44,226 nucleotides of DNA from a virus, in UHGV virus genome UHGV-0346409; one strand, given 5' to 3'. Below the pieces are notes generated by a model. It ran no database searches. It was not told the DNA's origin and worked only from the letters and a program-made list of their open reading frames with translations. The position numbers and the translations under genes are program-made. This document shows positions 2,474-21,956 of this stretch, in pieces; positions within the stretch are counted from its first letter, which is position 1, and each line of letters starts with the position of its first letter.

Positions 2474-4692
2474 GCTGTTTGCTCCTGTGCGGCGGCGAGA
2501 GCGGCGAGGCGTTCGGTTTTGATTTCATTCAAACGGCGCAGGCGCGAACCAAGATAAGTTGAATACTCCTTATCACCTTTGGATTCTGCGGCTTTGCGGT
2601 GAACTTCTACTTCCCGCGCAATAAGGCCATAGACTTTATTAACTTCATTGGGGGTTACGGCTGCAGCCAGTGTTTTGGCAACACCTGAGAGTCGTTCATC
2701 CAGTTCTTCACGCAGTCGGGTAGCATCCTCTGCTTTCTCGCTTGCCTTCTTAATACCGTATTCTGTATTCAGCTCGGCGGTGTAGGCACTATCGTTATGC
2801 ATATCCATATAAACATCTGCCGCAAATCCCAGATGAGATAGTGCTTTGACGGTGGCATCAGTAAGAGACTTTTTGGAGGCCTCTTTTTCCATTACCAGTG
2901 CCCCTTTGTTATTTTTTGATATGTAATCCGTGTGGCCATATGACGGAATAAATCCTTTCACTCCGTTCCAGACGTACCAGAGATCTATCCGGATGGTGTG
3001 TACTGACAGGCAGAACAGGGAGCCGTCAGCATCCCTGACAGGTTTTTGTCCAATAATTTTCCCTGTCTGATCCTGTATAGGTTCAAGTAATGGCACACCG
3101 CGATCCACTCGCTCCTCCTTGATTTCAACTCCCCAACCAATGCCTTCCATTCCCAGCACTTCAGTCGCACGCATCAAAATATATTGTGCGCGTATGGAGT
3201 GCAGTCCTGCACCGTAATCATTATGTGTGACATACGCAGGATCGGTCCGCTGAACGCGATTCCAGATAGCCAAATTTGCTTTGCTCTGGTCATCATTCAT
3301 TGCTGACAGATAATGCTCCATGCGAATTGATGCAGTTTTTTCCTCGGTATGGATCCGCTCAACCAGAGCGTCAACGTTCTGCACCAGGTCTTTTACCTGC
3401 TCGCTAAGTTTTTCTTGTGGAGGAGTCTCTTCTTCCAGGATAACAGTTACAGATTCCCGCTGTGATACGGCGTTATTTTCTGGTACGCCATACACATGGC
3501 GGGGCGTGACAAACTGCTCACGCAACTGCTGCAAACTACGCTCTCCAGCATTTGCTGCTTCGCTTTTTTCGCCCTGATTTGAGGGGGGTTCTGACATCAT
3601 CCCATCGATTGAGAATCGCCCGCCGCCGTGGTTGGTGACTTTTACATCACCCTTTGGTGCTGCGTCCTTTGGCTTCTCTTCAACAGCATTTGCATCACGC
3701 TGCCCGTTAGCTTGCAGCCAGTTGTCGATGTGACTGCGCAGGGATTGCGGGAAATGGTACGTGTCTTTTGCGGGGGCACTCTGAACGACACCGAATACGG
3801 ATGCCCGGTCATAGGAAAGGATCTGATCCGTTGTGCGCAAGGCCATTGACCAGCGTTTAAAATCCTCCCGATCCTGGCTGATTATTTCGTCTGCCGCTTT
3901 CAGGACGCTGGGGGTGATTTTTTCCGGGCCAACGGGTAACAGAGCGCAGGCAATTTCACGATCCAGTGTAGCGTGAGTCTGTTTGTAAGGACGTGCGGAT
4001 GCTGTTTCTGGTTTTACCTCCGGCAGCATTTCATCGCGTTTACCGGGATTCTCTACCCATTTTTTTATAAATTTGGAGATAGTCCAACTGGTCGGGTTTT
4101 GTTCCTGGGTATCGCAACTTGCCAAAATTGCATGTACCAGATTATTCAATCCAGCAATATGCATGTACTCGATGGGCTTACACGCCACCATGGCATCAAG
4201 AACGATGCGGTTAAACGCGTCAACCTCATCCTCACTGTCAGTATCACTGTTGTCGAGCATCTCCAGGTATTCACGCGTCTGCGCAAGCAATTCACTGTTG
4301 ACTTCGTTGGCGTCGTGGCTGAACAGCAGAACGGCGGCGAATCGTTCACGAGCCGGCAGTTTCATCAGGTCGTTAACCTGTGCGATATCTGCTGAACCGC
4401 TATCTACAACGGGGGTGTTAACTACCCATTTTTCGCCATCAAAACTGTGTTCTGTGGCGAACGTCTCATCAAACTCACCAACGCCTGGGCGCGGTTGGCC
4501 CGGGGCATCTTCCCAGATTTTAGGTTTGAAATAGTTGTCGCCGTGGTCAGGGTAGGCTTCCCACAATTTGCCGATGATGATGTTCTCGGCAACTTTTTTG
4601 TTAGGGGCGTCGATGGCGATGGCCAGCGCCGGGATCGCGCCGTTTTTGAGCGCGCCTTTTTTCGCTTCTAACAAGCCGTTAAAAATGGTCAT
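2470..4692 (-). CDS. Large recombination protein with ERF-like single-strand-annealing domain in its C-terminal half and an N-terminal ~430 aa of unknown function
   Basis: 740-aa ORF; region around aa 450-640 (NDYGAG..IRAQYIL.., ..KKSLTDATVKALSHLGFAADVYMD) resembles the ERF family by recall; preceded by ATGAGGAAAGACCA motif. Confidence 0.5.
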   Translation of the reverse strand: MTIFNGLLEAKKGALKNGAIPALAIAIDAPNKKVAENIIIGKLWEAYPDHGDNYFKPKIWEDAPGQPRPGVGEFDETFATEHSFDGEKWVVNTPVVDSGSADIAQVNDLMKLPARERFAAVLLFSHDANEVNSELLAQTREYLEMLDNSDTDSEDEVDAFNRIVLDAMVACKPIEYMHIAGLNNLVHAILASCDTQEQNPTSWTISKFIKKWVENPGKRDEMLPEVKPETASARPYKQTHATLDREIACALLPVGPEKITPSVLKAADEIISQDREDFKRWSMALRTTDQILSYDRASVFGVVQSAPAKDTYHFPQSLRSHIDNWLQANGQRDANAVEEKPKDAAPKGDVKVTNHGGGRFSIDGMMSEPPSNQGEKSEAANAGERSLQQLREQFVTPRHVYGVPENNAVSQRESVTVILEEETPPQEKLSEQVKDLVQNVDALVERIHTEEKTASIRMEHYLSAMNDDQSKANLAIWNRVQRTDPAYVTHNDYGAGLHSIRAQYILMRATEVLGMEGIGWGVEIKEERVDRGVPLLEPIQDQTGKIIGQKPVRDADGSLFCLSVHTIRIDLWYVWNGVKGFIPSYGHTDYISKNNKGALVMEKEASKKSLTDATVKALSHLGFAADVYMDMHNDSAYTAELNTEYGIKKASEKAEDATRLREELDERLSGVAKTLAAAVTPNEVNKVYGLIAREVEVHRKAAESKGDKEYSTYLGSRLRRLNEIKTERLAALAAAQEQTA

Positions 4693-4722
4693 TGGTCTTT
4701 CCTCATTACAGGTCAGTGGTTT

Positions 4723-5043
4723 TTAGTAGGGGAGCTCATCGGTATCTGGCGTGTATTCGATGCAAAGTAACTGCTGGATTTTGTCATCGATAGCAGCAAT
4801 ACGCTGTTGAGCGTCGGCGGCTGTATTCTGTTTTTGCTCACGCAGCTGCTCGACCTGCAAACCGATGATGTCGATTGGCTGGGGCTGGTTGACGGTAATT
4901 TCAATTTCGCGGCTTTCCAGAAGGATGTACCTGTCTGGAAAATTTTTTGACATATCAACCGTCGCAATAAACAGCTTTTCATGGCTGAAAGTTGAAGTTG
5001 CATAATGAATAAAGAGTGTTACTGGGATGGTGCGCGCTTCCAT
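4723..5043 (-). CDS. Hypothetical early protein (106 aa)
   Basis: ORF with AAGGAG 5 nt upstream of ATG. Confidence 0.5.
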   Translation of the reverse strand: MEARTIPVTLFIHYATSTFSHEKLFIATVDMSKNFPDRYILLESREIEITVNQPQPIDIIGLQVEQLREQKQNTAADAQQRIAAIDDKIQQLLCIEYTPDTDELPY

Positions 5044-6039
5044 AGCGACTCCTTGGTGATGTATACTCGGGACCGATCAGCGAATATTGATCAGCTTCCA
5101 TAGCGTCAGTGTCGTTGGTCTTTCCTCATCACAAGTTTGGTCACTTGTGATAAATCCGAATGGTTTGGTCGCCGTTCGGGGTAACTGGCCCGCCTTGTGC
5201 GGGTCTTTTGCTATCTAAAGGGTGCCGGTTACGTTTCCGGCGTCGTTATGTTTCCATCACGACCGTACGGGGCTGGTCTTTCCTGTTTTGAGCTGGTCAG
5301 GCTCATGGTCAACGCTGGTCAGGCGTGGTACTTCCTCCGGTCTTTCCCTGGTGTCACGCTGCGGGTTTGGCCTCTCCTGTTGGGGACTCAGGCACAGCGA
5401 TAAAACCTGGCTGTGTGAAAAAATGGCCCATCGTGCGGACTGGGCAAAGACTAAACACAGCAAATTGATGATGGGCGCCCGGAATCGAACCGGGTAACGG
5501 GCAGGGAGTTCCCGTTAAACACCTGTTCACCACAACCGGGAGCGCACTCCGCCATTTCAAAATTTAACGACAAAGCTCAAAGTTGAGTCGATGAAGTGCG
5601 CTCTCGTGTTGTAGCCAGGACTCTTCCCTGGTGGTCACACCGTATCGCCTTGATGGTGAATCAATCGCTCATACCTGGCTGTGGCTTGCACATTCCGGCT
5701 ACCTGCTATGGAGACAACGCGTTAAGGCTCCGCTTCCATCCAGACCGCTTCGACACATGTGCCATATGCCGGCGAAGTCTTTCCCTCTGTCATCGTGTTG
5801 GCGCCGACGCGCAAAATTTGATGCCGTCTTTCCGGCTGTCAGAACGTGTTTCTGAACAACTGCCGCTGGGTAAGCGTTGTTGATGAAAGTGACTTTACAA
5901 TTTGTATTTGTAATGGTCAACGTATTTTTAAAAAATAATTTGTAGTTAGGGGCAAAAAAATATTCACTGTGTAAAGGTGTTTTTGTGTTAGGGGGAAAGT
6001 TGCATGCCAGCAGCGGCTGGCCTGAAAATTTGAACTGAA

Positions 6040-6453
6040 CTATTTTGTCTGGTTTTTGGCTTCAAGTAGTTCTTTTAGCAGTAGATCGAAGTGCTCTCTT
6101 TTTTCTTTTAGCTCATTGATTAATTTATTTTTTTCGCTCTCAGGCAGTCCTCTGAATAGTTGCAGTAGAGCCTGTTCTTGCGGGGTTAGTTCTTGATTGT
6201 AATTACCCGGGTGTAGCGTGGATTCATCCAAATATTCCCCTTCATTCATGAAGAAAAAATGAACAGGGTATCCGGTCACTTTTGCTAGCTTGTCTAATTT
6301 ATCTTTTCTTGGAGTTACCCCATTACACCATGCCTGAACTGATTGAGCCGTAACCCCAATATGGCGAGCTAACTCAGATTGAGACCAGCCTAAGTCTTTT
6401 AGAATCCGTTGTAGTCGGCTAGCAAAAGCCATGTTTTTCGTTTTTGTGTTCAT
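6040..6453 (-). CDS. Phage repressor, XRE-family HTH, no S24 peptidase domain (CI-like position)
   Basis: N-terminal HTH (LGWSQSELARHIGVTAQSVQAWCNG); helical C-terminus; divergent from cro-like gene. Start ambiguous (ATG 6453 or 6432; ORF-track TTG 6468). Confidence 0.7.
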   Translation of the reverse strand: MNTKTKNMAFASRLQRILKDLGWSQSELARHIGVTAQSVQAWCNGVTPRKDKLDKLAKVTGYPVHFFFMNEGEYLDESTLHPGNYNQELTPQEQALLQLFRGLPESEKNKLINELKEKREHFDLLLKELLEAKNQTK

Positions 6454-11611: not shown

Positions 11612-12406
11612 ATGACAACTCAAGTATCCGCAGCAGCCATCTCCCCGATTATCCACAACCAACTTCCCGTCCTCACCACCGAATTACTCGCGAATCTCTA
11701 TGGCACAGAGCCGGATTACATTCGTAAAAACCATAACCGGAACTCAGAGCGATTCGTGGTCGGGAAGCATTACTTTTTGCTCGAAGGTGAGGAGTTGCGC
11801 GAATTTAAGCACAGCATGTCTTTAAGACCTCCTGTGAAAATCGCCAGAAATGTCCGCTCTCTCATCCTCTGGACAGAACGCGGCGCAGCTCGCCATGCCA
11901 AAATGCTGGAAACAGAACAGGCCTGGGAAGTTTTCGAAAAGCTGGAAGATTGTTATTTTAGCCAGCGTCCAGAGAGGCGGAGTACAACCACCGATGACCG
12001 CACTCCCTTACGTGATGCCGTTAATATGCTGGTCGGTAAGAAAGGCATGATGTATCCCGATGCCTACACCATGATTCACCAACGTTTCGCCGTCTCTCAC
12101 ATAGAACAACTGTCACAGACGCAAATGTTAGAGGCGATTGAATACATCCACTGCCTGCTACTCGATGAAAATCAGCCAACCATTCCAGATTTTTCTTTTA
12201 TCACCACTATCAAAAATGGAAAAGTGACCAGGATGCGCCATGTTGCCAAAGGCGAACATCTGATGACGTTTGACGCTTTCAAAGAGATCGCTGAGCGGGC
12301 AGGGTATCTGGTGATCCACAGCGACAACCTGCGAAGTATGACGCTGGATAAATTGATGGTAATGGGGAAAAAGTCGGTTGTATCCGTTGCTGATTCAGCA
12401 TTTTGA
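11612..12406 (+). CDS. Antirepressor-like protein with ORF6N/Bro-N-type N-terminal domain
   Basis: N-terminal segment (LPVLTTELLANLYGTEPDYIRKNHNRNSERFVVGKHYFLLEGEELREFK) matches the ORF6N-type antirepressor N-domain by recall; own transcription unit after a terminator. Confidence 0.5.
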   Translation: MTTQVSAAAISPIIHNQLPVLTTELLANLYGTEPDYIRKNHNRNSERFVVGKHYFLLEGEELREFKHSMSLRPPVKIARNVRSLILWTERGAARHAKMLETEQAWEVFEKLEDCYFSQRPERRSTTTDDRTPLRDAVNMLVGKKGMMYPDAYTMIHQRFAVSHIEQLSQTQMLEAIEYIHCLLLDENQPTIPDFSFITTIKNGKVTRMRHVAKGEHLMTFDAFKEIAERAGYLVIHSDNLRSMTLDKLMVMGKKSVVSVADSAF

Positions 12407-12583: not shown

Positions 12584-13507
12584 TTATTGGTTTCTGAGGA
12601 AAGCGATTCTTGAAAGGGTCATTTGCGTCTGGCAGTCGACCATTTTCTTGACTTCAGCATCTGTTCCCTGCATTGAAACTTTACCGCACATAGCATCCTT
12701 AGTTTTGATCCACTGACGCTGAGAAGGCAGCAACTCTTTTTTCTTCGCCGGCGTTAACCTGCCCCAGACTGTATTCAAATCAGAGTCAGCATTCGCAAAT
12801 GCCATTCGGGACTGATCAAGGCTTTCAGCTTTTTGCGGCTGAAGTTGTGCCTGCCTCTCTATTTGCTTCTCCGCCTCATACCTGGCCTGTTCCTGTGCCC
12901 TGAGTTGCACCTGTTGTTCCGCTTCAATTTGACTCTGTTGGGCATCCTTAGCCTGCTGGATTTTCTGCTGCTCAACGATCGGGTTGATAATGGAAAGCGA
13001 TGTCAGTAAAGCGGCGCCCACTGATATCGGATTATCAGAAGAGGTTTTTACAAAAACGTTTTTCTGATCGTCGGTCGCCTGCACGGTGTAGGTGATACGT
13101 TTTGAAAAGGCGTTTGCGTTGTTCTCCAAAAACAGATTTTCCATTTGCTTATCGAGATTACGATTAAAATTCTTTCGGTAAGCATCAGAAAGCTGGATGT
13201 ACTCGTTCGCAGGTAGAGTCATCGTCACGGTCCCTTCACAAGTTTTCATTGTGCTGCCCGTGTCACTTGATGTTGTGGAGATTTCAGAGACGGCTAGTTT
13301 GATCTTGTCCAGTGTGCTTCGTTTGGTCTGATTAGTGACATCAGGGTATTTATCGACCTGTTCAGAGAGTCCTTCATAAGCAGATTTTTTTAATAAATCC
13401 ATGAGAGCTGATTGGGTCATTTCCGAAGAACAACCGATCTCATCTTTTTTGTTATCACAGCCTGTAAGGGCAATGGCGAGTAAGAGTACTGAGTATTTTA
13501 ATCTCAT
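12584..13507 (-). CDS. Lipoprotein with coiled-coil Q/E-rich middle region and DUF1311 (LprI-like) C-terminal domain
   Basis: Signal peptide with lipobox LTGC; C-terminus LNTVWGRL..QRQWIKTKDAMC..DCQTQMTLSRIAFL fits the DUF1311 pattern (recall). Confidence 0.6.
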   Translation of the reverse strand: MRLKYSVLLLAIALTGCDNKKDEIGCSSEMTQSALMDLLKKSAYEGLSEQVDKYPDVTNQTKRSTLDKIKLAVSEISTTSSDTGSTMKTCEGTVTMTLPANEYIQLSDAYRKNFNRNLDKQMENLFLENNANAFSKRITYTVQATDDQKNVFVKTSSDNPISVGAALLTSLSIINPIVEQQKIQQAKDAQQSQIEAEQQVQLRAQEQARYEAEKQIERQAQLQPQKAESLDQSRMAFANADSDLNTVWGRLTPAKKKELLPSQRQWIKTKDAMCGKVSMQGTDAEVKKMVDCQTQMTLSRIAFLRNQ

Positions 13508-14535: not shown

Positions 14536-15201
14536 ATGAAAGCCGACAACTTAAGAATTATAGAGAATGGCAAATATGTTTTCGATATGTTCTTGGATAC
14601 TGGTGAATTTTACTATACAAGTCATGCCTTTGACACGAGAGAAGATGCAAAAAGCTGGATGGAAGAATGGCAGATTTGGGCAAATAATGTATCGAGTGGG
14701 AAAGTAAGTAGTATTTATTATATTTTACAAGTGCCTGATACTTGGGCCGGTTCTTCAGATAAAAATAACCCTTACTCGGGACTTTATGTGAAAATAGGGC
14801 GTTCCAATAATGTGCTAAAAAGGTTGTCTAACCTGCAGACAGGTGCATTTGGTCAATTAATATTACACGCTTTGGAACCAGGTGGTTCAGAAAAAGAAAA
14901 CTATCTTCATGAAAAATTTAGCAACGAAAGACGTCAAGGTGAATGGTTTGTTTGTACTAAGGAACTTACCAAGCATATATTTACAACATGGTTTAAAAAC
15001 AAAATGCTCCCACCAGAACATCAAATAAAAATAATGCAGCTCGCAGAAAGAATAGGTATTTATTCGCATGTTCATACACTAATGGGGGGGAAGCCAGACT
15101 TAGTAAACCCATCTATTAGTGAACCTTGGGAATGCGAAAAATATGTTTTGGTTGATATGATTTATAGCTCTTTAGCAAAGCAAGTTAATCATAAAAAATA
15201 A
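14536..15201 (+). CDS. T5orf172-domain (GIY-YIG-like) protein with unknown N- and C-terminal extensions
   Basis: Central region IYYILQ..GLYVKIGRSNNVLKRLSNLQTG..LHEKFSNERRQGEWF matches the T5orf172/MUG113 signature (recall); AT-rich coding sequence. Confidence 0.6.
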   Translation: MKADNLRIIENGKYVFDMFLDTGEFYYTSHAFDTREDAKSWMEEWQIWANNVSSGKVSSIYYILQVPDTWAGSSDKNNPYSGLYVKIGRSNNVLKRLSNLQTGAFGQLILHALEPGGSEKENYLHEKFSNERRQGEWFVCTKELTKHIFTTWFKNKMLPPEHQIKIMQLAERIGIYSHVHTLMGGKPDLVNPSISEPWECEKYVLVDMIYSSLAKQVNHKK

Positions 15202-16035: not shown

Positions 16036-16641
16036 TTACTTGCGTTTAAAAAGGTATTTTGTCACGACCAGCACGAGGCCGAATACCTCTGTCAAAGTAC
16101 CGCCCATGTACAACTGTAGTGTTAAATCCTCAAATTCCAGCTTACCTGCGCCGTCGGCAATAAATACACCATTCATTATCAGAAGTTGGCAAGCAAGGAT
16201 AATCAGGAACCATTTCCCGTATCGTTTTTTTAGAGCGATTTCTGCTTCAAAATCTTTGTTGTTGAGTTGTTTGCGCTCATGCTCGGTATCAAGTGAATTC
16301 ACCTGTTTCACAGATGTGAACTCGGTCAAGATTTTACTCTCAGTACGGGTGACTTGTTGAGAGGGTGTAACAGTTGGAATTCTTTTGCTAGACGCAGCTA
16401 CAGCCATTTTGCGAGCTTCGGCAGCTCTTTTTCTGGCTATTCCGCGAATACGGACAGCCGTTTTTTTGGGGGCGTGCGAAACCTTTGGCTGAGGTGAAGT
16501 TTCGTCAGGAGACTGAACCGGGGTTTCATCGTCCCCCGGCTCAACCTCTTCTGCTAACTGACGGTGTAGGTTGAGGGAATCCTTCAGTCGGCGTGCAACT
16601 TCCTGTTTGAAACGGCTGTTAAAATCGTCATCCGATGGCAT
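16036..16641 (-). CDS. Membrane protein: charged, low-complexity N-terminal region and two C-terminal transmembrane helices
   Basis: Hydrophobic segments WFLIILACQLLIMNGVFI and LTEVFGLVLVV near the C-terminus; start 9 nt after the ImmA-like stop (operon). Confidence 0.6.
   Translation of the reverse strand: MPSDDDFNSRFKQEVARRLKDSLNLHRQLAEEVEPGDDETPVQSPDETSPQPKVSHAPKKTAVRIRGIARKRAAEARKMAVAASSKRIPTVTPSQQVTRTESKILTEFTSVKQVNSLDTEHERKQLNNKDFEAEIALKKRYGKWFLIILACQLLIMNGVFIADGAGKLEFEDLTLQLYMGGTLTEVFGLVLVVTKYLFKRK
16042..16117. repeat. Right copy of ~75-bp imperfect direct repeat, lying within the 3' end of the membrane-protein gene
   Basis: Aligns with 12441-12515 (about 93% identity). Confidence 0.7.
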
Positions 16642-16650
16642 TCTAAAGCG

Positions 16651-17139
16651 TTACCCCAACCTCAAGTTCTTTAAACGATAAGTCATCGCATCGTCAGATA
16701 CGCCAAAATAATGCGCCATTATATAACTTGGTTGGCCGTCAGCGTGCAGTTTTCTGACCTCATCAACCGGCATCAGAAGTTCTGCTGCGAACTTGTTCGC
16801 AAAAATTTCATCAGGATGCGTTCCGGCGCTTGCGGTTTCGCCACGTAAATCAACGTACTCATATTCATCACTATGCGATGCTTGCCGGGCGATGTAATGC
16901 CCCAACTCATGCCCACATGAAAAACGTTGACGAACTTTGTTGTCATCACTGTTTAGAAAGATCGCTGGATCTTGATCTTTTTGTTTAATCAGTGCGCCAG
17001 AAACTTTCCCAGGAAGATCGGTAATAAAAACATCTAATCCCATGTCGTGAGCAATTTTCGCTGGATCAACAGGGAAACCACGCCCGCACCAGAACGTGTC
17101 CAGCACTCGCCGGGCGTGCTCTCTTGGGTTGGTAGCCAT
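16651..17139 (-). CDS. ImmA/IrrE-family zinc metallopeptidase (COG2856/DUF955-like)
   Basis: HExxH motif (CGHELGHY) and downstream E..ANKFAAELLMP segment typical of ImmA/IrrE peptidases (recall); GGAGG RBS. Confidence 0.75.
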   Translation of the reverse strand: MATNPREHARRVLDTFWCGRGFPVDPAKIAHDMGLDVFITDLPGKVSGALIKQKDQDPAIFLNSDDNKVRQRFSCGHELGHYIARQASHSDEYEYVDLRGETASAGTHPDEIFANKFAAELLMPVDEVRKLHADGQPSYIMAHYFGVSDDAMTYRLKNLRLG

Positions 17140-17466
17140 AGCTCCTCCAGTTACTGCATTACGATTGTTGGTCGAAATATAGACAACATGTTCCGTACCA
17201 CTTTCCTGTGAAAGTGCAAATTCTGCACTTCTGGTACGATATTAACTGTTAGTAGTAAAGTCTTCCAGATAAATCACTTTAAAATCTTGTGAATTGCTTG
17301 CTTTTTACGCTGCATTGTGGATGGCTCAATGTTTCCAGTAAAAACATACATGATAATCATGACATTAGTGGTTTTTTAAGCGTCCATATGTTTCTTAAAA
17401 AAATGGATGCCACAAGAGGCCAGATGAGAACGGAAAGGGAAGGCTATTACATGTGTGATTTATTAC

Positions 17467-17486
17467 ATCTGTAAAAAAATACAGAT
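17467..17486. promoter_or_regulatory. LexA (SOS) box candidate: ATCTGT-AAAAAAAT-ACAGAT
   Basis: Exact CTGT-N8-ACAG with AT-rich spacer, in the intergenic region between the ImmA-like gene and a plus-strand small ORF. Confidence 0.5.
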
Positions 17487-17706
17487 CTAACTTGATCTTT
17501 TCATTGAAGTTTTTCTTGGTCCTGGATAGGATCTGGAGGTTGCGAAGTTTTTAGAGTCGCATCAAAGGGAAAGCCCTGACAGCGCCAACTGTCAGGGCCA
17601 TACAAAAACATCGGTTAATGCTTTCGTTGAGATCTCGGTTTGGGAGATTACCTCAACCGGGATCCCGTGTAAAGCATTCATTACCGAAAATGATATAGGT
17701 CAATGA

Positions 17707-18838: not shown

Positions 18839-18876
18839 ATGACAAATGCCATAAAATACTGTATAAATGTACAGGT
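18839..18876 (+). promoter_or_regulatory. SOS-type promoter: -35 ATGACA, 17-nt spacer, -10 TATAAA, overlapped by LexA box TACTGT-ATAAATGT-ACAGGT (18857-18876)
   Basis: Read directly; box is close to the TACTGTATATATATACAGTA consensus and overlaps the -10; 21 nt upstream of an ATG with GGGGGAAG RBS. Confidence 0.6.
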
Positions 18877-18896: not shown

Positions 18897-19076
18897 ATGA
18901 ATATTCAAGAATCTATAGGCGAACTACCGGAAACATGCCGGGCTGTTATCAAGCGTAAGGACGGACACATCGTTGGTGTGCGTGTTCTGACCGATGATGA
19001 ACGGATTGCCAGCCTGATGGCGTTTCTCGAGTTGGCAGAAATAGCTGGATATACTATTACACCCCCTGATGCGTAA
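18897..19076 (+). CDS. Small SOS-regulated protein (59 aa), candidate antirepressor; below the ORF-track length cutoff
   Basis: ATG with strong RBS immediately downstream of the LexA-overlapped promoter. Confidence 0.5.
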   Translation: MNIQESIGELPETCRAVIKRKDGHIVGVRVLTDDERIASLMAFLELAEIAGYTITPPDA

Positions 19077-20822: not shown

Positions 20823-21206
20823 ATGTCTGAACCTCTAACCGCTGGCGTTGCTGCTGGCTCGGCGGGGGTGACGTTTGCTGCGTTATTTCCTGAGGCAACA
20901 CCTGCAGTGATGATCTGTGCGCTGGCTGGCGCAGCTCTCTATGTGTTGTCGTCCGGGCAGCATCGATTCTGGAAGCAGGTTATTTTCGCACTCATTTCGT
21001 TTGTTGGCGGTGTGTATTGCGCTGAGACAGCGTCAGCCATCATTACCGGTATTCTGAACGCGGTGCTGAGTCACCTGAACCCTCCCGTAACAGTAAAAGT
21101 CTCTCCCGCCATTGGTGCACTGGTTGCATCAGTAATCAGCGTTACATCACTGTTGCGGATCATGTCACAAGCTCGTTTATGGAAATCAGATAAGGGGATG
21201 AAATAA
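20823..21206 (+). CDS. Putative holin / lysis membrane protein (127 aa)
   Basis: Three to four hydrophobic segments; first gene after the late promoter. Confidence 0.5.
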   Translation: MSEPLTAGVAAGSAGVTFAALFPEATPAVMICALAGAALYVLSSGQHRFWKQVIFALISFVGGVYCAETASAIITGILNAVLSHLNPPVTVKVSPAIGALVASVISVTSLLRIMSQARLWKSDKGMK

Positions 21207-21490
21207 TGACCCTGCACTCTGTCCTCATTAATGCCAATGCAATTATCTGTCTGATGCTGGCACTGCGGTTGATGTTTTTTCAAAAAACAGGCCGCTATCG
21301 TTTTTTCATCTCACTAACTGCTTACCTGGCGATTCTGTCTGCTGCGTGGATAGCCCTACGAATTTTTTACGGGAAATACACGCAGGTTGATCCCGCAGAG
21401 TTCTTTCTCAATCTCACCATCTGTATTGCTGTCTGGCGGGCACGAGGGAATATTTCAAAAATAACAGGAGACAGGTATGACCGATCCTAA
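21206..21490 (+). CDS. Putative holin or lysis-associated membrane protein (94 aa)
   Basis: Three hydrophobic segments with charged C-terminus; coupled (TAATG) to the upstream gene. Confidence 0.45.
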   Translation: MTLHSVLINANAIICLMLALRLMFFQKTGRYRFFISLTAYLAILSAAWIALRIFYGKYTQVDPAEFFLNLTICIAVWRARGNISKITGDRYDRS

Positions 21491-21956
21491 ATGGCTAATT
21501 GAGGCACGAAAAAATCTCGGCATTCGGGAAATGAAAGGGAAGCAACATGCTGCAGAAATTGTGCAGTACTGGAAAGATATCAAACGCGGCGGCATTAAGG
21601 ATGATGAAACCCCGTGGTGCGCTGCCTTCACCGGAGCAATGCTGGAACGTGTAGGTATTCGCTCAACGCGTTTTGAGTCTGCGAATTCTTATCTCGATTG
21701 GGGTAATGAACTGAAGGAACCCGCCTATGGATGCATTGCTATTCTGTCTCGGTCTGGCGGTGGTCACGTTGGCTTTGTTGTCGGGAAAAATGCCGCCGGG
21801 GATTTAATGATTTTGGGTGGTAACCAGGCAGATGAAGTAAATATCAAAGCTTTTCCTCGTTCCCGCGTAACAGGCTACCGCTGGCCAGCAGGCCAAACTG
21901 ATGTTCCACAATCACTTCCATTCGTGAATGCTGAGAAATCTATCTCAGAAGCGTAG
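21477..21956 (+). CDS. Putative endolysin, cysteine-peptidase type (CHAP/NlpC-P60-like)
   Basis: AGGAG RBS; candidate catalytic Cys (PWCAAF) and His (GGGHVGFV); position in lysis cassette. Confidence 0.55.
   Translation: MTDPKWLIEARKNLGIREMKGKQHAAEIVQYWKDIKRGGIKDDETPWCAAFTGAMLERVGIRSTRFESANSYLDWGNELKEPAYGCIAILSRSGGGHVGFVVGKNAAGDLMILGGNQADEVNIKAFPRSRVTGYRWPAGQTDVPQSLPFVNAEKSISEA

Follow-up and report, generated by a model that had tools for sequence, protein, structure and literature searches.

A minimal M78 peptidase and a two-helix membrane protein in an Escherichia coli prophage: a probable RosmerTA-type toxin-antitoxin pair

The stretch of DNA analysed here, which we refer to as the window, is the whole 44,226-nt virus genome UHGV-0346409, a lambdoid-type Escherichia coli prophage integrated at tRNA-Ser beside mtfA; the part of it that we tested is 100% identical to several complete genomes, such as that of O43 str. 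RM10042. We examined a pair of genes at positions 16036-17139 (Table 1), situated in an accessory stretch with the replication genes on one side and the Q antiterminator on the other, which encode a small zinc peptidase of the M78 (ImmA/IrrE-like) family and a 201-amino acid (aa) membrane protein and which probably form a toxin-antitoxin (TA) module of the RosmerTA type. An earlier reading of the letters, made without database searches (the sequence-only reading), had placed here an M78 peptidase gene followed after 9 nt by a gene for a protein with two transmembrane (TM) helices. The open reading frames (ORFs), the Pfam profile PF06114 and TM prediction confirm that description. The Shine-Dalgarno sequence of the peptidase gene is common to the E. 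coli, Klebsiella and Salmonella copies. In homologous pairs with clean gene calls the spacing ranges from small overlaps to 11 nt, and this tight spacing suggests that the two genes are co-translated. A Pfam scan revealed no helix-turn-helix (HTH) domain in the peptidase, the 201-aa protein or either flanking ORF, in agreement with the earlier statement that the peptidase has no HTH partner. No CapH-like gene was found at the locus, and no operon lies downstream of the pair in the window.

Assignment of the peptidase to M78 was upheld by a hidden Markov model (HMM) search, in which it matched PF06114 (Peptidase_M78) over profile positions 3-123 of 123 with 64.9 bits against a cutoff of 22 (E=7.7e-18). 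Downstream of its HELGH motif lies E111, which probably serves as the third zinc ligand. Among 66 homologues of the peptidase H77, H81 and E111 are invariant and E78 is nearly so, and the HExxH motif is retained in 117 of 120 proteins of the family. These four residues (H77/E78/H81/E111) correspond to H97/E98/H101/E128 of CapP. The AlphaFold2 model of the peptidase has a predicted local distance difference test (pLDDT) score of 90.9, and its top Foldseek matches were CapP (7t5t; E=7e-7, query TM-score (TMq) 0.67), IrrE (3dte) and PprI (8sln). The protein thus shows all the features by which M78 members are recognised, namely the HMM match, HExxH with a downstream Glu and the fold of the solved members, and we take it to be a bona fide M78 enzyme with a predicted intact active site. 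It consists of the peptidase domain alone, ending at residue 162, with neither an N-terminal HTH nor a C-terminal GAF domain. The PADLOC capP profile matches it over positions 3-151 of 242 (E=2.4e-25), and the PADLOC RmrA models do so only in their peptidase stretch, at approximately profile positions 145-293 (E=5.8e-12 at best). Alignment with CapP revealed no counterpart of the CapP cysteine-switch loop.

Two family members with altered motifs were noted. In a Methylococcaceae metagenome-assembled genome (L043, 3414-4273) HELGH is replaced by RELGR and the adjacent 2TM gene appears intact, and the peptidase of P0094 has HKIGH. These could be decaying copies, or a sign that neutralisation of the partner does not need catalysis.

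Scans against Pfam, PADLOC and NCBIfam gave no match for the 201-aa protein, which belongs to phrog_5346, a PHROG with no assigned function. We considered whether it is a holin and rejected this, as it has no holin match in Pfam or PHROG, no endolysin gene adjoins it, and the lysis cassette of the prophage (holins and endolysin) lies elsewhere. AlphaFold2 gave a low-confidence model (pLDDT 62, predicted TM-score (pTM) 0.28) with an N-terminal helix, a disordered stretch and two further helices, the boundaries of which are those of the segments in Table 1. Hydropathy and charge place TM1 at residues ~144-164 and TM2 at ~174-194, with an acidic loop between them (net charge -2) and a basic tail, KYLFKRK (+4), after them. 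Because of this distribution of hydropathy and charge, an N-in/C-in topology is indicated for the predicted protein. The two C-terminal TM helices and the long charged N-terminal region that the sequence-only reading had described were therefore both recovered. A profile search of 1.84 billion cluster representatives returned 682 members at E<=1e-3; the membrane family is large and has no Pfam entry. Conservation across the family lies in the juxtamembrane helix and the pair of TM helices, and the protein ends in YLF and basic residues. Polar or charged residues inside the TM helices are nearly invariant (Q152, N157, G181, T182 and E185), and in TM2 and the tail G181, T182, the acidic intrahelical E185, F187, G188 and the terminal LF are invariant. 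The N-terminal helix is conserved among the enterobacterial members and is a candidate docking or cleavage region for the peptidase; a conserved LD(P)E motif at residues 117-120 is another place where a cut might fall.

For the distribution of the pair we scanned genomes, one per species, starting from an alignment of the membrane family, and 40 loci were returned. In every one of them (40/40) a full-length peptidase of ~160 aa is encoded directly upstream of the membrane gene on the same strand, and the loci span the Gamma- and Betaproteobacteria, Desulfobacterota, Nitrospirota, Bacillota, Actinomycetota, Planctomycetota, Ignavibacteria and Myxococcota. The same order, peptidase and then membrane gene, was found in 19 of 19 viral loci with upstream sequence and in all seven contexts examined individually, approached from either gene. 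Co-occurrence of the two genes in other genomes, put forward by the sequence-only reading as a check, is thus complete in the genome and viral loci, and the pairing is obligate. In Klebsiella, Salmonella and other E. coli the gene for a homologue of the membrane protein always comes directly after one for a 162-aa M78 peptidase, and it often has a tRNA gene (the attachment site) on one side and a phage integrase on the other. Starting from the peptidase, relatives of 45-62% identity were found in Pectobacterium, Pseudoalteromonas, Salmonella and Silvimonas; each of their genes has, 0-7 nt downstream, one for a 111-145-aa protein with the same C-terminal module. The pair occupies typical moron sites (between attL and int, in the nin region, in P4-like or integrative elements) as well as ordinary chromosomal positions. 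Of 5426 complete E. coli genomes, 431 (~8%) carry it, mostly of the pandemic lineage sequence type 131 (ST131), at 98.9% identity.

Several loci depart from the two-gene form. Four viral contigs (L080-L083) retain only the last 25 codons of the 2TM gene (residues 177-201, 92% identity) and no peptidase; these remnants look like recombination scars from loss or exchange of the module. At four other loci (L049, L052, L053 and L054; ~3300-6300 in each), from Isosphaeraceae, Bacillota, Ignavibacteria and Nannocystis, three further genes come after the pair in the same orientation. Their products are a BpsA_C-like (PF01861) transferase that weakly resembles PADLOC mad2, a conserved ~190-aa protein lacking any known domain, and a kinase-like protein of the AAA_17 type. 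This five-gene cassette, found in four distant phyla, may be a larger system. In one Pseudoalteromonas locus (L012, 1200-3150) an AAA_17 gene lies upstream of the pair and is divergent from it.

The link to a characterised system was reached from the peptidase side and by profile methods. In tblastn searches of sequenced phages the peptidase gave a 100%-identical match in Escherichia phage vB_EcoM-705R4, and its next matches were in Gordonia phages, including gene 32 of phage Kita (44% identity over 93% of the protein, E=5e-31; by BLASTP, 43% identity to gp32 over 157 aa, E=1e-41). Kita gp32 and gp33 are RmrA(D25) and RmrT(D5), a RosmerTA pair (Ernits et al. 2023, PMC10440598). The tblastn search with the membrane protein missed Kita gp33, returning a single marginal match in Mammaliicoccus phi31 (E=1). 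The HMM of the membrane family, however, scored Kita gp33 at 36.4 bits, as compared with a maximum of 6.3 among 2000 shuffles of gp33, and hhalign aligned the family with Kita RmrT over 79 columns (probability 95.4%, E=1.9e-8) that run from the juxtamembrane helix through both TM helices to the terminal LF motif. Further members of the membrane family were identified in Clostridium phage c-st (CST124/CST123, 60 bits) and Mammaliicoccus phi31 (CDS63/64, 43.5 bits). When assayed in E. coli, Kita RmrT halts growth at once and rapidly depolarises and permeabilises the membranes, RmrA counteracts it incompletely, and the pair guards the cells against phages Bas54 and Bas59 (PMC10440598). Homology of the antitoxin, homology of the toxin and an adjacent, co-oriented two-gene operon, three features of the Kita D25:D5 form of RosmerTA, were all found in the window, and from these comparisons we judge the pair to belong to the HTH-less RosmerTA subtype known since 2023, here in a prophage of E. 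coli. The locus is an already known kind of system and not a new architecture.

M78 homologues of 31-45% identity also occur with other partners, in mycobacteriophage Che9c (gp32/gp33, L088), a P2-like phage (P2DC1_41/42, L087), Burkholderia phage Carl1 (Carl1_1/2, L089) and Pseudoalteromonas phage ACA1 (gp1/gp2, L090). These partners are small, have TM-like hydrophobic stretches by eye and are not homologous to the 2TM family of the window; those of the P2-like phage and ACA1 resemble each other in a C-terminal TM segment. The ACA1 peptidase is annotated as an antirepressor, a label on which such pairings cast doubt. This is the swapping of partners that has already been described for D25 as an antitoxin hub (Ernits et al. 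2023, PMC10440598).

Genetic evidence comes from TraDIS (transposon-directed insertion-site sequencing) of ST131 hosts. Strain EC958 encodes an identical peptidase (WP_000224749.1) adjoining the 2TM gene in a prophage of the same type; its mtfA/tRNA-Ser site is occupied by another prophage, and the one with the pair lies beside the tRNA-Leu/Cys/Gly cluster by pgsA. EC958_2158, annotated as a COG2856 predicted Zn peptidase (PF06114, DUF955), is among the 315 essential genes of EC958 and is one of 24 of these with no K-12 homologue (PMC3789825 Table S3). Its neighbours EC958_2157, 2159 and 2161 carry insertions, and its offset to the essential HTH_XRE gene EC958_2173 equals the offset to the prophage repressor. 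With essentiality scored as log2(insertion index/cutoff), where values <=0 denote an essential gene, the peptidase gene scores -0.08 in EC958 and -0.07 in NCTC13441, and the adjacent membrane gene +2.7 and +3.7, respectively (PMC11481867). Insertions are thus 7- to 13-fold rarer in the peptidase gene than in the adjoining membrane gene in two ST131 libraries. An essential peptidase beside a dispensable membrane protein is what an antitoxin and its toxin should show, and it supports, without proving, that assignment. Near the pair, EC958_2160 (L060 14694-15392; EC958 2070693-2071391) encodes a 232-aa hypothetical protein convergent with it, annotated as a putative lysogenic protein and similar to a P2-EC58 protein; it is essential in EC958 (-0.60) but not in NCTC13441 (+1.73), and it is absent from the window, which has other genes at that place, those for the 134-aa ORF and the GIY-YIG/T5orf172 protein.

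The TraDIS figures also bear on the opposite polarity, in which the 201-aa protein would be an inert pro-toxin, autoinhibited by its N-terminal helix and linker, and a sensor M78 peptidase, stimulated for example by single-stranded DNA (ssDNA) in the manner of CapP, IrrE and ImmA, would cut it on infection or DNA damage and so open the pore, much as for bacterial gasdermins, EACC1 and Pepco. The architecture fits, in that the N-terminal helix and the pore-like C-terminal module are conserved and the disordered linker between them is variable; M78 relatives are activated by damage or ssDNA (10.64898/2026.05.16.725639), protease-licensed pore formers are common in defence (10.1101/2025.11.14.688446), and membrane genes stay intact beside the catalytically dead peptidases of L043 and P0094. 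Nevertheless, insertions are depleted in the peptidase gene, the reverse of the effect that losing an activator should have, and Kita RmrT is toxic alone and counteracted by RmrA (PMC10440598). The peptidase moreover has no GAF domain, which makes half of the ssDNA groove of CapP and IrrE, and no counterpart of the cysteine-switch loop. We consider activation by proteolysis decidedly improbable, and the signal activation imagined in the sequence-only reading probably had the polarity wrong, since the data favour a neutraliser rather than an activator.

Because the pairing is invariant, both genes are homologous to the validated Kita pair and the ST131 TraDIS pattern is that of antitoxin and toxin, we think it likely that the two genes form a RosmerTA-type toxin-antitoxin/abortive-infection module of the Kita RmrA(D25)/RmrT(D5) subtype. 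The same three lines of evidence support the earlier suggestion that a peptidase and a membrane effector make up an abortive-infection or exclusion module here. On this interpretation the 201-aa protein would insert in the inner membrane, its N-terminal region and its basic tail facing the cytoplasm, and, if unrestrained, would oligomerise through the polar faces of its helices (Q152, N157, E185) and depolarise or permeabilise the membrane. The peptidase, made from the same transcript just ahead of the toxin, would keep it harmless, presumably by binding and cutting its cytoplasmic N-terminal segment; we infer cleavage rather than binding alone because the catalytic residues are almost universally kept (117/120). 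Infection by particular phages would then remove or override the restraint, and the freed toxin would stop the cell before the invader completes its cycle, to the gain of the lysogen population and the prophage. The membrane toxicity of the 201-aa protein, its proteolytic neutralisation, the trigger and the range of excluded phages are all put forward here as expectations.

A number of points weigh against this interpretation. Identity between the membrane protein and Kita RmrT is low (24% over the 79 columns), and TM segments can inflate match scores, although the shuffled controls speak against that here. The PADLOC v2 RmrT models give no match to the membrane protein. The TraDIS scores of the peptidase gene lie just at the threshold, the old locus tag was mapped to the gene from gene order and Pfam annotation, and transposon polarity and read-out complicate interpretation. 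Dead peptidases beside intact toxins (L043, P0094) are hard to reconcile with catalytic neutralisation unless those copies are decaying. Neutralisation by Kita RmrA is only partial, and AlphaFold failed on the complex (pDockQ 0.05; PMC10440598); because of this partial effect and the unmodelled complex, direct binding or cleavage of the toxin is a presumption.

A more specific version of the TA module, which we hold only tentatively, is that the peptidase is an enzymatic antitoxin that would cut the cytoplasmic N-terminus of the pore toxin at a specific site ('type VII-like'), and that a phage product would block or titrate the peptidase and so release the toxin; the five-gene cassettes suggest that the module can be the effector arm of a larger system. 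To our knowledge protease-based neutralisation has not yet been demonstrated for any TA system.

The same TA-like genetics would be expected if the pair served addiction alone, stabilising the prophage or island by post-segregational killing with no exclusion of other phages. The position of the module at the extreme edge of integrated elements, beside int, is in keeping with such a role, as is the narrow defence conferred by the Kita pair, which extends to two BASEL phages (PMC10440598). However, RosmerTA systems including the Kita pair do protect against phages when assayed, the module also occurs at ordinary chromosomal positions, and roles in addiction and defence can coexist. We therefore regard pure maintenance as unlikely.

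Table 1. Position of the gene pair, its parts and other features of the prophage in the window
Feature	Position	Strand	Description
Peptidase gene	16651-17139	minus	162 aa; predicted M78 (ImmA/IrrE-fold) zinc peptidase, RmrA(D25) antitoxin homologue; PF06114
HELGH zinc-binding/catalytic motif	16897-16911	minus	H77, E78, H81 (residues 77-81); read from the sequence
Membrane protein gene	16036-16641	minus	201 aa; putative RmrT(D5) toxin family member; phrog_5346
N-terminal cytoplasmic amphipathic helix (predicted)	16546-16632	minus	aa 4-32; AlphaFold2 pLDDT 78-87; L19, L23, R27 conserved
Disordered charged linker (predicted)	16288-16545	minus	aa 33-118; length differs by ~100 residues among close relatives
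Juxtamembrane helix and TM1 (predicted)	16150-16287	minus	aa 119-164; K138, Q152, N157, G164 nearly invariant
TM2 and basic tail (predicted)	16048-16128	minus	aa 172-198; LYMGGTLTEVFGLVLVVTKYLF; aligns with Kita RmrT
Intercistronic spacer	16642-16650	minus	9 nt; both ORFs in the same frame
Shine-Dalgarno of peptidase gene	17140-17148	minus	strong GGAGGAG; AGCTCCTCC on the plus strand, equal to GGAGGAGCT
LexA-box-like site	17469-17484		CTGTAAAAAAATACAG, perfect CTGT-N8-ACAG; in a 567-bp intergenic region, 330 nt from the peptidase ATG
Flanking ORF, 134 aa	15522-15926		HTH-free by Pfam scan
Flanking ORF, 92 aa	17707-17985	plus	HTH-free by Pfam scan
CI-like prophage repressor	6040-6432		HTH_3 only, no S24 domain
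Near-consensus LexA box	18859-18874		TACTGTATAAATGTACAGGT; 22 nt upstream of the 59-aa ORF
59-aa ORF	18897-19076		WP_001025459.1; no Pfam match
Inverted repeat in leader of peptidase gene	17170-17215		CGTACCAG...CTGGTACG
Protospacer in peptidase gene	17045-17076		32 nt; TCGTGAGCAATTTTCGCTGGATCAACAGGGAA
ATG protospacer-adjacent motif	17042-17044		canonical
Hairpin with T-rich tract	17572-17599	minus	strong, 12 bp, GC-rich
ORF6N/KilAC Ant-family anti-repressor gene	11612-12406		phrog_4792
LprI-family 'lysozyme inhibitor' protein gene	12584-13507		307 aa
GIY-YIG/T5orf172 protein gene	14536-15201		
Lysis cassette	20823-21956		holins and endolysin

The sequence-only reading had also drawn attention to a LexA box about 330 bp upstream of the pair. 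The site is real, and the window contains two perfect CTGT-N8-ACAG boxes as against 0.41 expected, but the commonest E. coli variant and other contexts lack it: in the ST131 variant (98.9% identical) only a half-site remains, and no conserved LexA box was found upstream of the Klebsiella, Salmonella and E. coli att-site copies. Because it is degraded or absent in these copies, we view the box as local context and not as part of the module. It matters for a further explanation, in which the ImmA-type peptidase, under SOS/LexA control, would cleave the prophage repressor or another regulator in trans and the membrane gene would be a passenger. The prophage repressor (given as 6040-6453 when cleavage in trans was first suggested) indeed has an HTH_3 domain only and no S24 domain, and the perfect LexA core lies 330 nt upstream of the peptidase gene. 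ImmA of ICEBs1, a protein of similar size, has an anti-repressor role. Yet the pair is strictly co-inherited in loci with no prophage or a different prophage, the box is destroyed in the ST131 variant and missing elsewhere, and loss of an anti-repressor should be harmless, stabilising lysogeny instead of lowering fitness, the opposite of the TraDIS result. The prophage also offers other candidates, an ORF6N/Ant-family protein and, as the stronger one for SOS control, a 59-aa ORF. We regard an unlinked anti-repressor as highly improbable.

The 59-aa ORF follows a near-consensus LexA box and has a good ribosome-binding site, and the same gene is found in the EC958 prophage; in a prophage whose repressor has no cleavage domain, it has the look of a small Tum/Gifsy-type anti-repressor under SOS control. 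In the leader of the peptidase gene we noted an inverted repeat (also at L005 3400-3450 and L056 7160-7205), the outer arms of which are conserved between E. coli and Salmonella and the inner stem of which differs in sequence. It could be either an operator or an RNA element; folding-energy Z-scores for the leader of 0.03, 0.44 and -1.98 against shuffles did not make a convincing case for RNA structure.

A few observations concern the surrounding DNA. The hairpin listed in Table 1, in minus-strand orientation, lies between the 92-aa gene and the LexA box, and no annotated minus-strand gene precedes it. The accessory island that carries the pair also carries the Ant-family gene and, convergent with it, the gene for the LprI-family protein, both of which are kept in the ST131 prophage. 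A GIY-YIG/T5orf172 protein is encoded in the window as well. A type I-E CRISPR spacer of E. coli GCM39-10-2-9-3-1, from an array beside queE, is an exact match to the peptidase gene (17045-17076 of the window; L055 1501-1533), where the protospacer is preceded by a canonical ATG motif; an E. coli CRISPR system therefore once sampled an element bearing the module.

Standard annotation leaves the membrane gene as 'hypothetical', and through the link to Kita a conditionally essential prophage gene of ST131 gains a function open to test. What is new is a family-level picture of a large membrane-toxin family absent from Pfam, with a minimal M78 peptidase in every locus examined, the prevalence of the pair in ST131 together with the conditional essentiality of its peptidase there, and the conserved five-gene context in four distant phyla. 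The pair also makes it possible to study, in a setting native to E. coli, the way in which an ImmA-type peptidase restrains a membrane toxin. A search of the literature by protein accessions found nothing on the pair, and the prophage TA pair in an E. coli CRISPRi essentiality preprint proved to be a different one, with the toxin gene first.

Compared with known systems, the peptidase shares family and fold with ImmA/ImmR (ICEBs1, phi105), IrrE/DdrO and CapP/CapH, whose substrate is an HTH repressor encoded by the adjacent gene, whereas the neighbour here is a membrane protein. IrrE and CapP carry a GAF domain that the peptidase does not have, and the genetics of the pair point to restraint of a toxin, as opposed to derepression of an operon. 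The adjacent HTH repressor typical of ImmA/ImmR was not found, a tRNA gene lying immediately upstream of the pair in other genomes, and the CapP/CapH arrangement (a peptidase with HTH and GAF domains, adjacent CapH and a downstream defence operon) was likewise not found.

Small size, two TM helices, an N-in/C-in topology, a basic C-terminal tail and polar residues in the helices are shared by the putative toxin with class II holins and GhoT. The likeness to GhoT/GhoS extends to an antidote that is an enzyme and not a simple binder (presumed for the window pair), with no sequence similarity; GhoS cuts mRNA and not protein. Protease-licensed pore formers such as gasdermin, EACC1 and Pepco likewise combine a protease gene and a small membrane-damaging effector in mobile or defence contexts, but they use activating serine or cysteine proteases, whereas the peptidase described here behaves as an antidote, and an M78 peptidase is in none of the ten protease-effector families surveyed by Evans et al. 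(2025 preprint, 10.1101/2025.11.14.688446).

Within RosmerTA, the antitoxin of the original system could not be deleted (Millman et al. 2022). ImmA-type D25 antitoxins often carry an HTH, and the PADLOC RmrA profiles are 357-400 positions long, whereas the window peptidase has no HTH and covers their peptidase stretch alone. The pair does not conform to RosmerTA as modelled in PADLOC-DB v2 (an HTH and M78 RmrA with RmrT models), and this version would not call or report the locus because no RmrT model matches the membrane protein. The closest counterpart is the Kita pair. The E. coli toxin is longer (201 aa vs 119 aa in Kita), with an additional N-terminal helix and an 86-aa disordered linker, and the hosts belong to different phyla, Proteobacteria for the E. 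coli pair and Actinomycetota for Kita. The E. coli pair lies in a nin-region island and that of Kita between the tail genes and the integrase region; the Kita pair has been assayed, and the experimental data on the E. coli pair come from TraDIS. In both, the pair is phage-borne, a small M78 peptidase annotated with no HTH comes first, and an abutting membrane toxin follows with a C-terminal membrane module ending ...EV.GL...I(T)..LF. The locus does not reveal a new kind of system, and its nearest relative is one whose toxin and antitoxin have been characterised.

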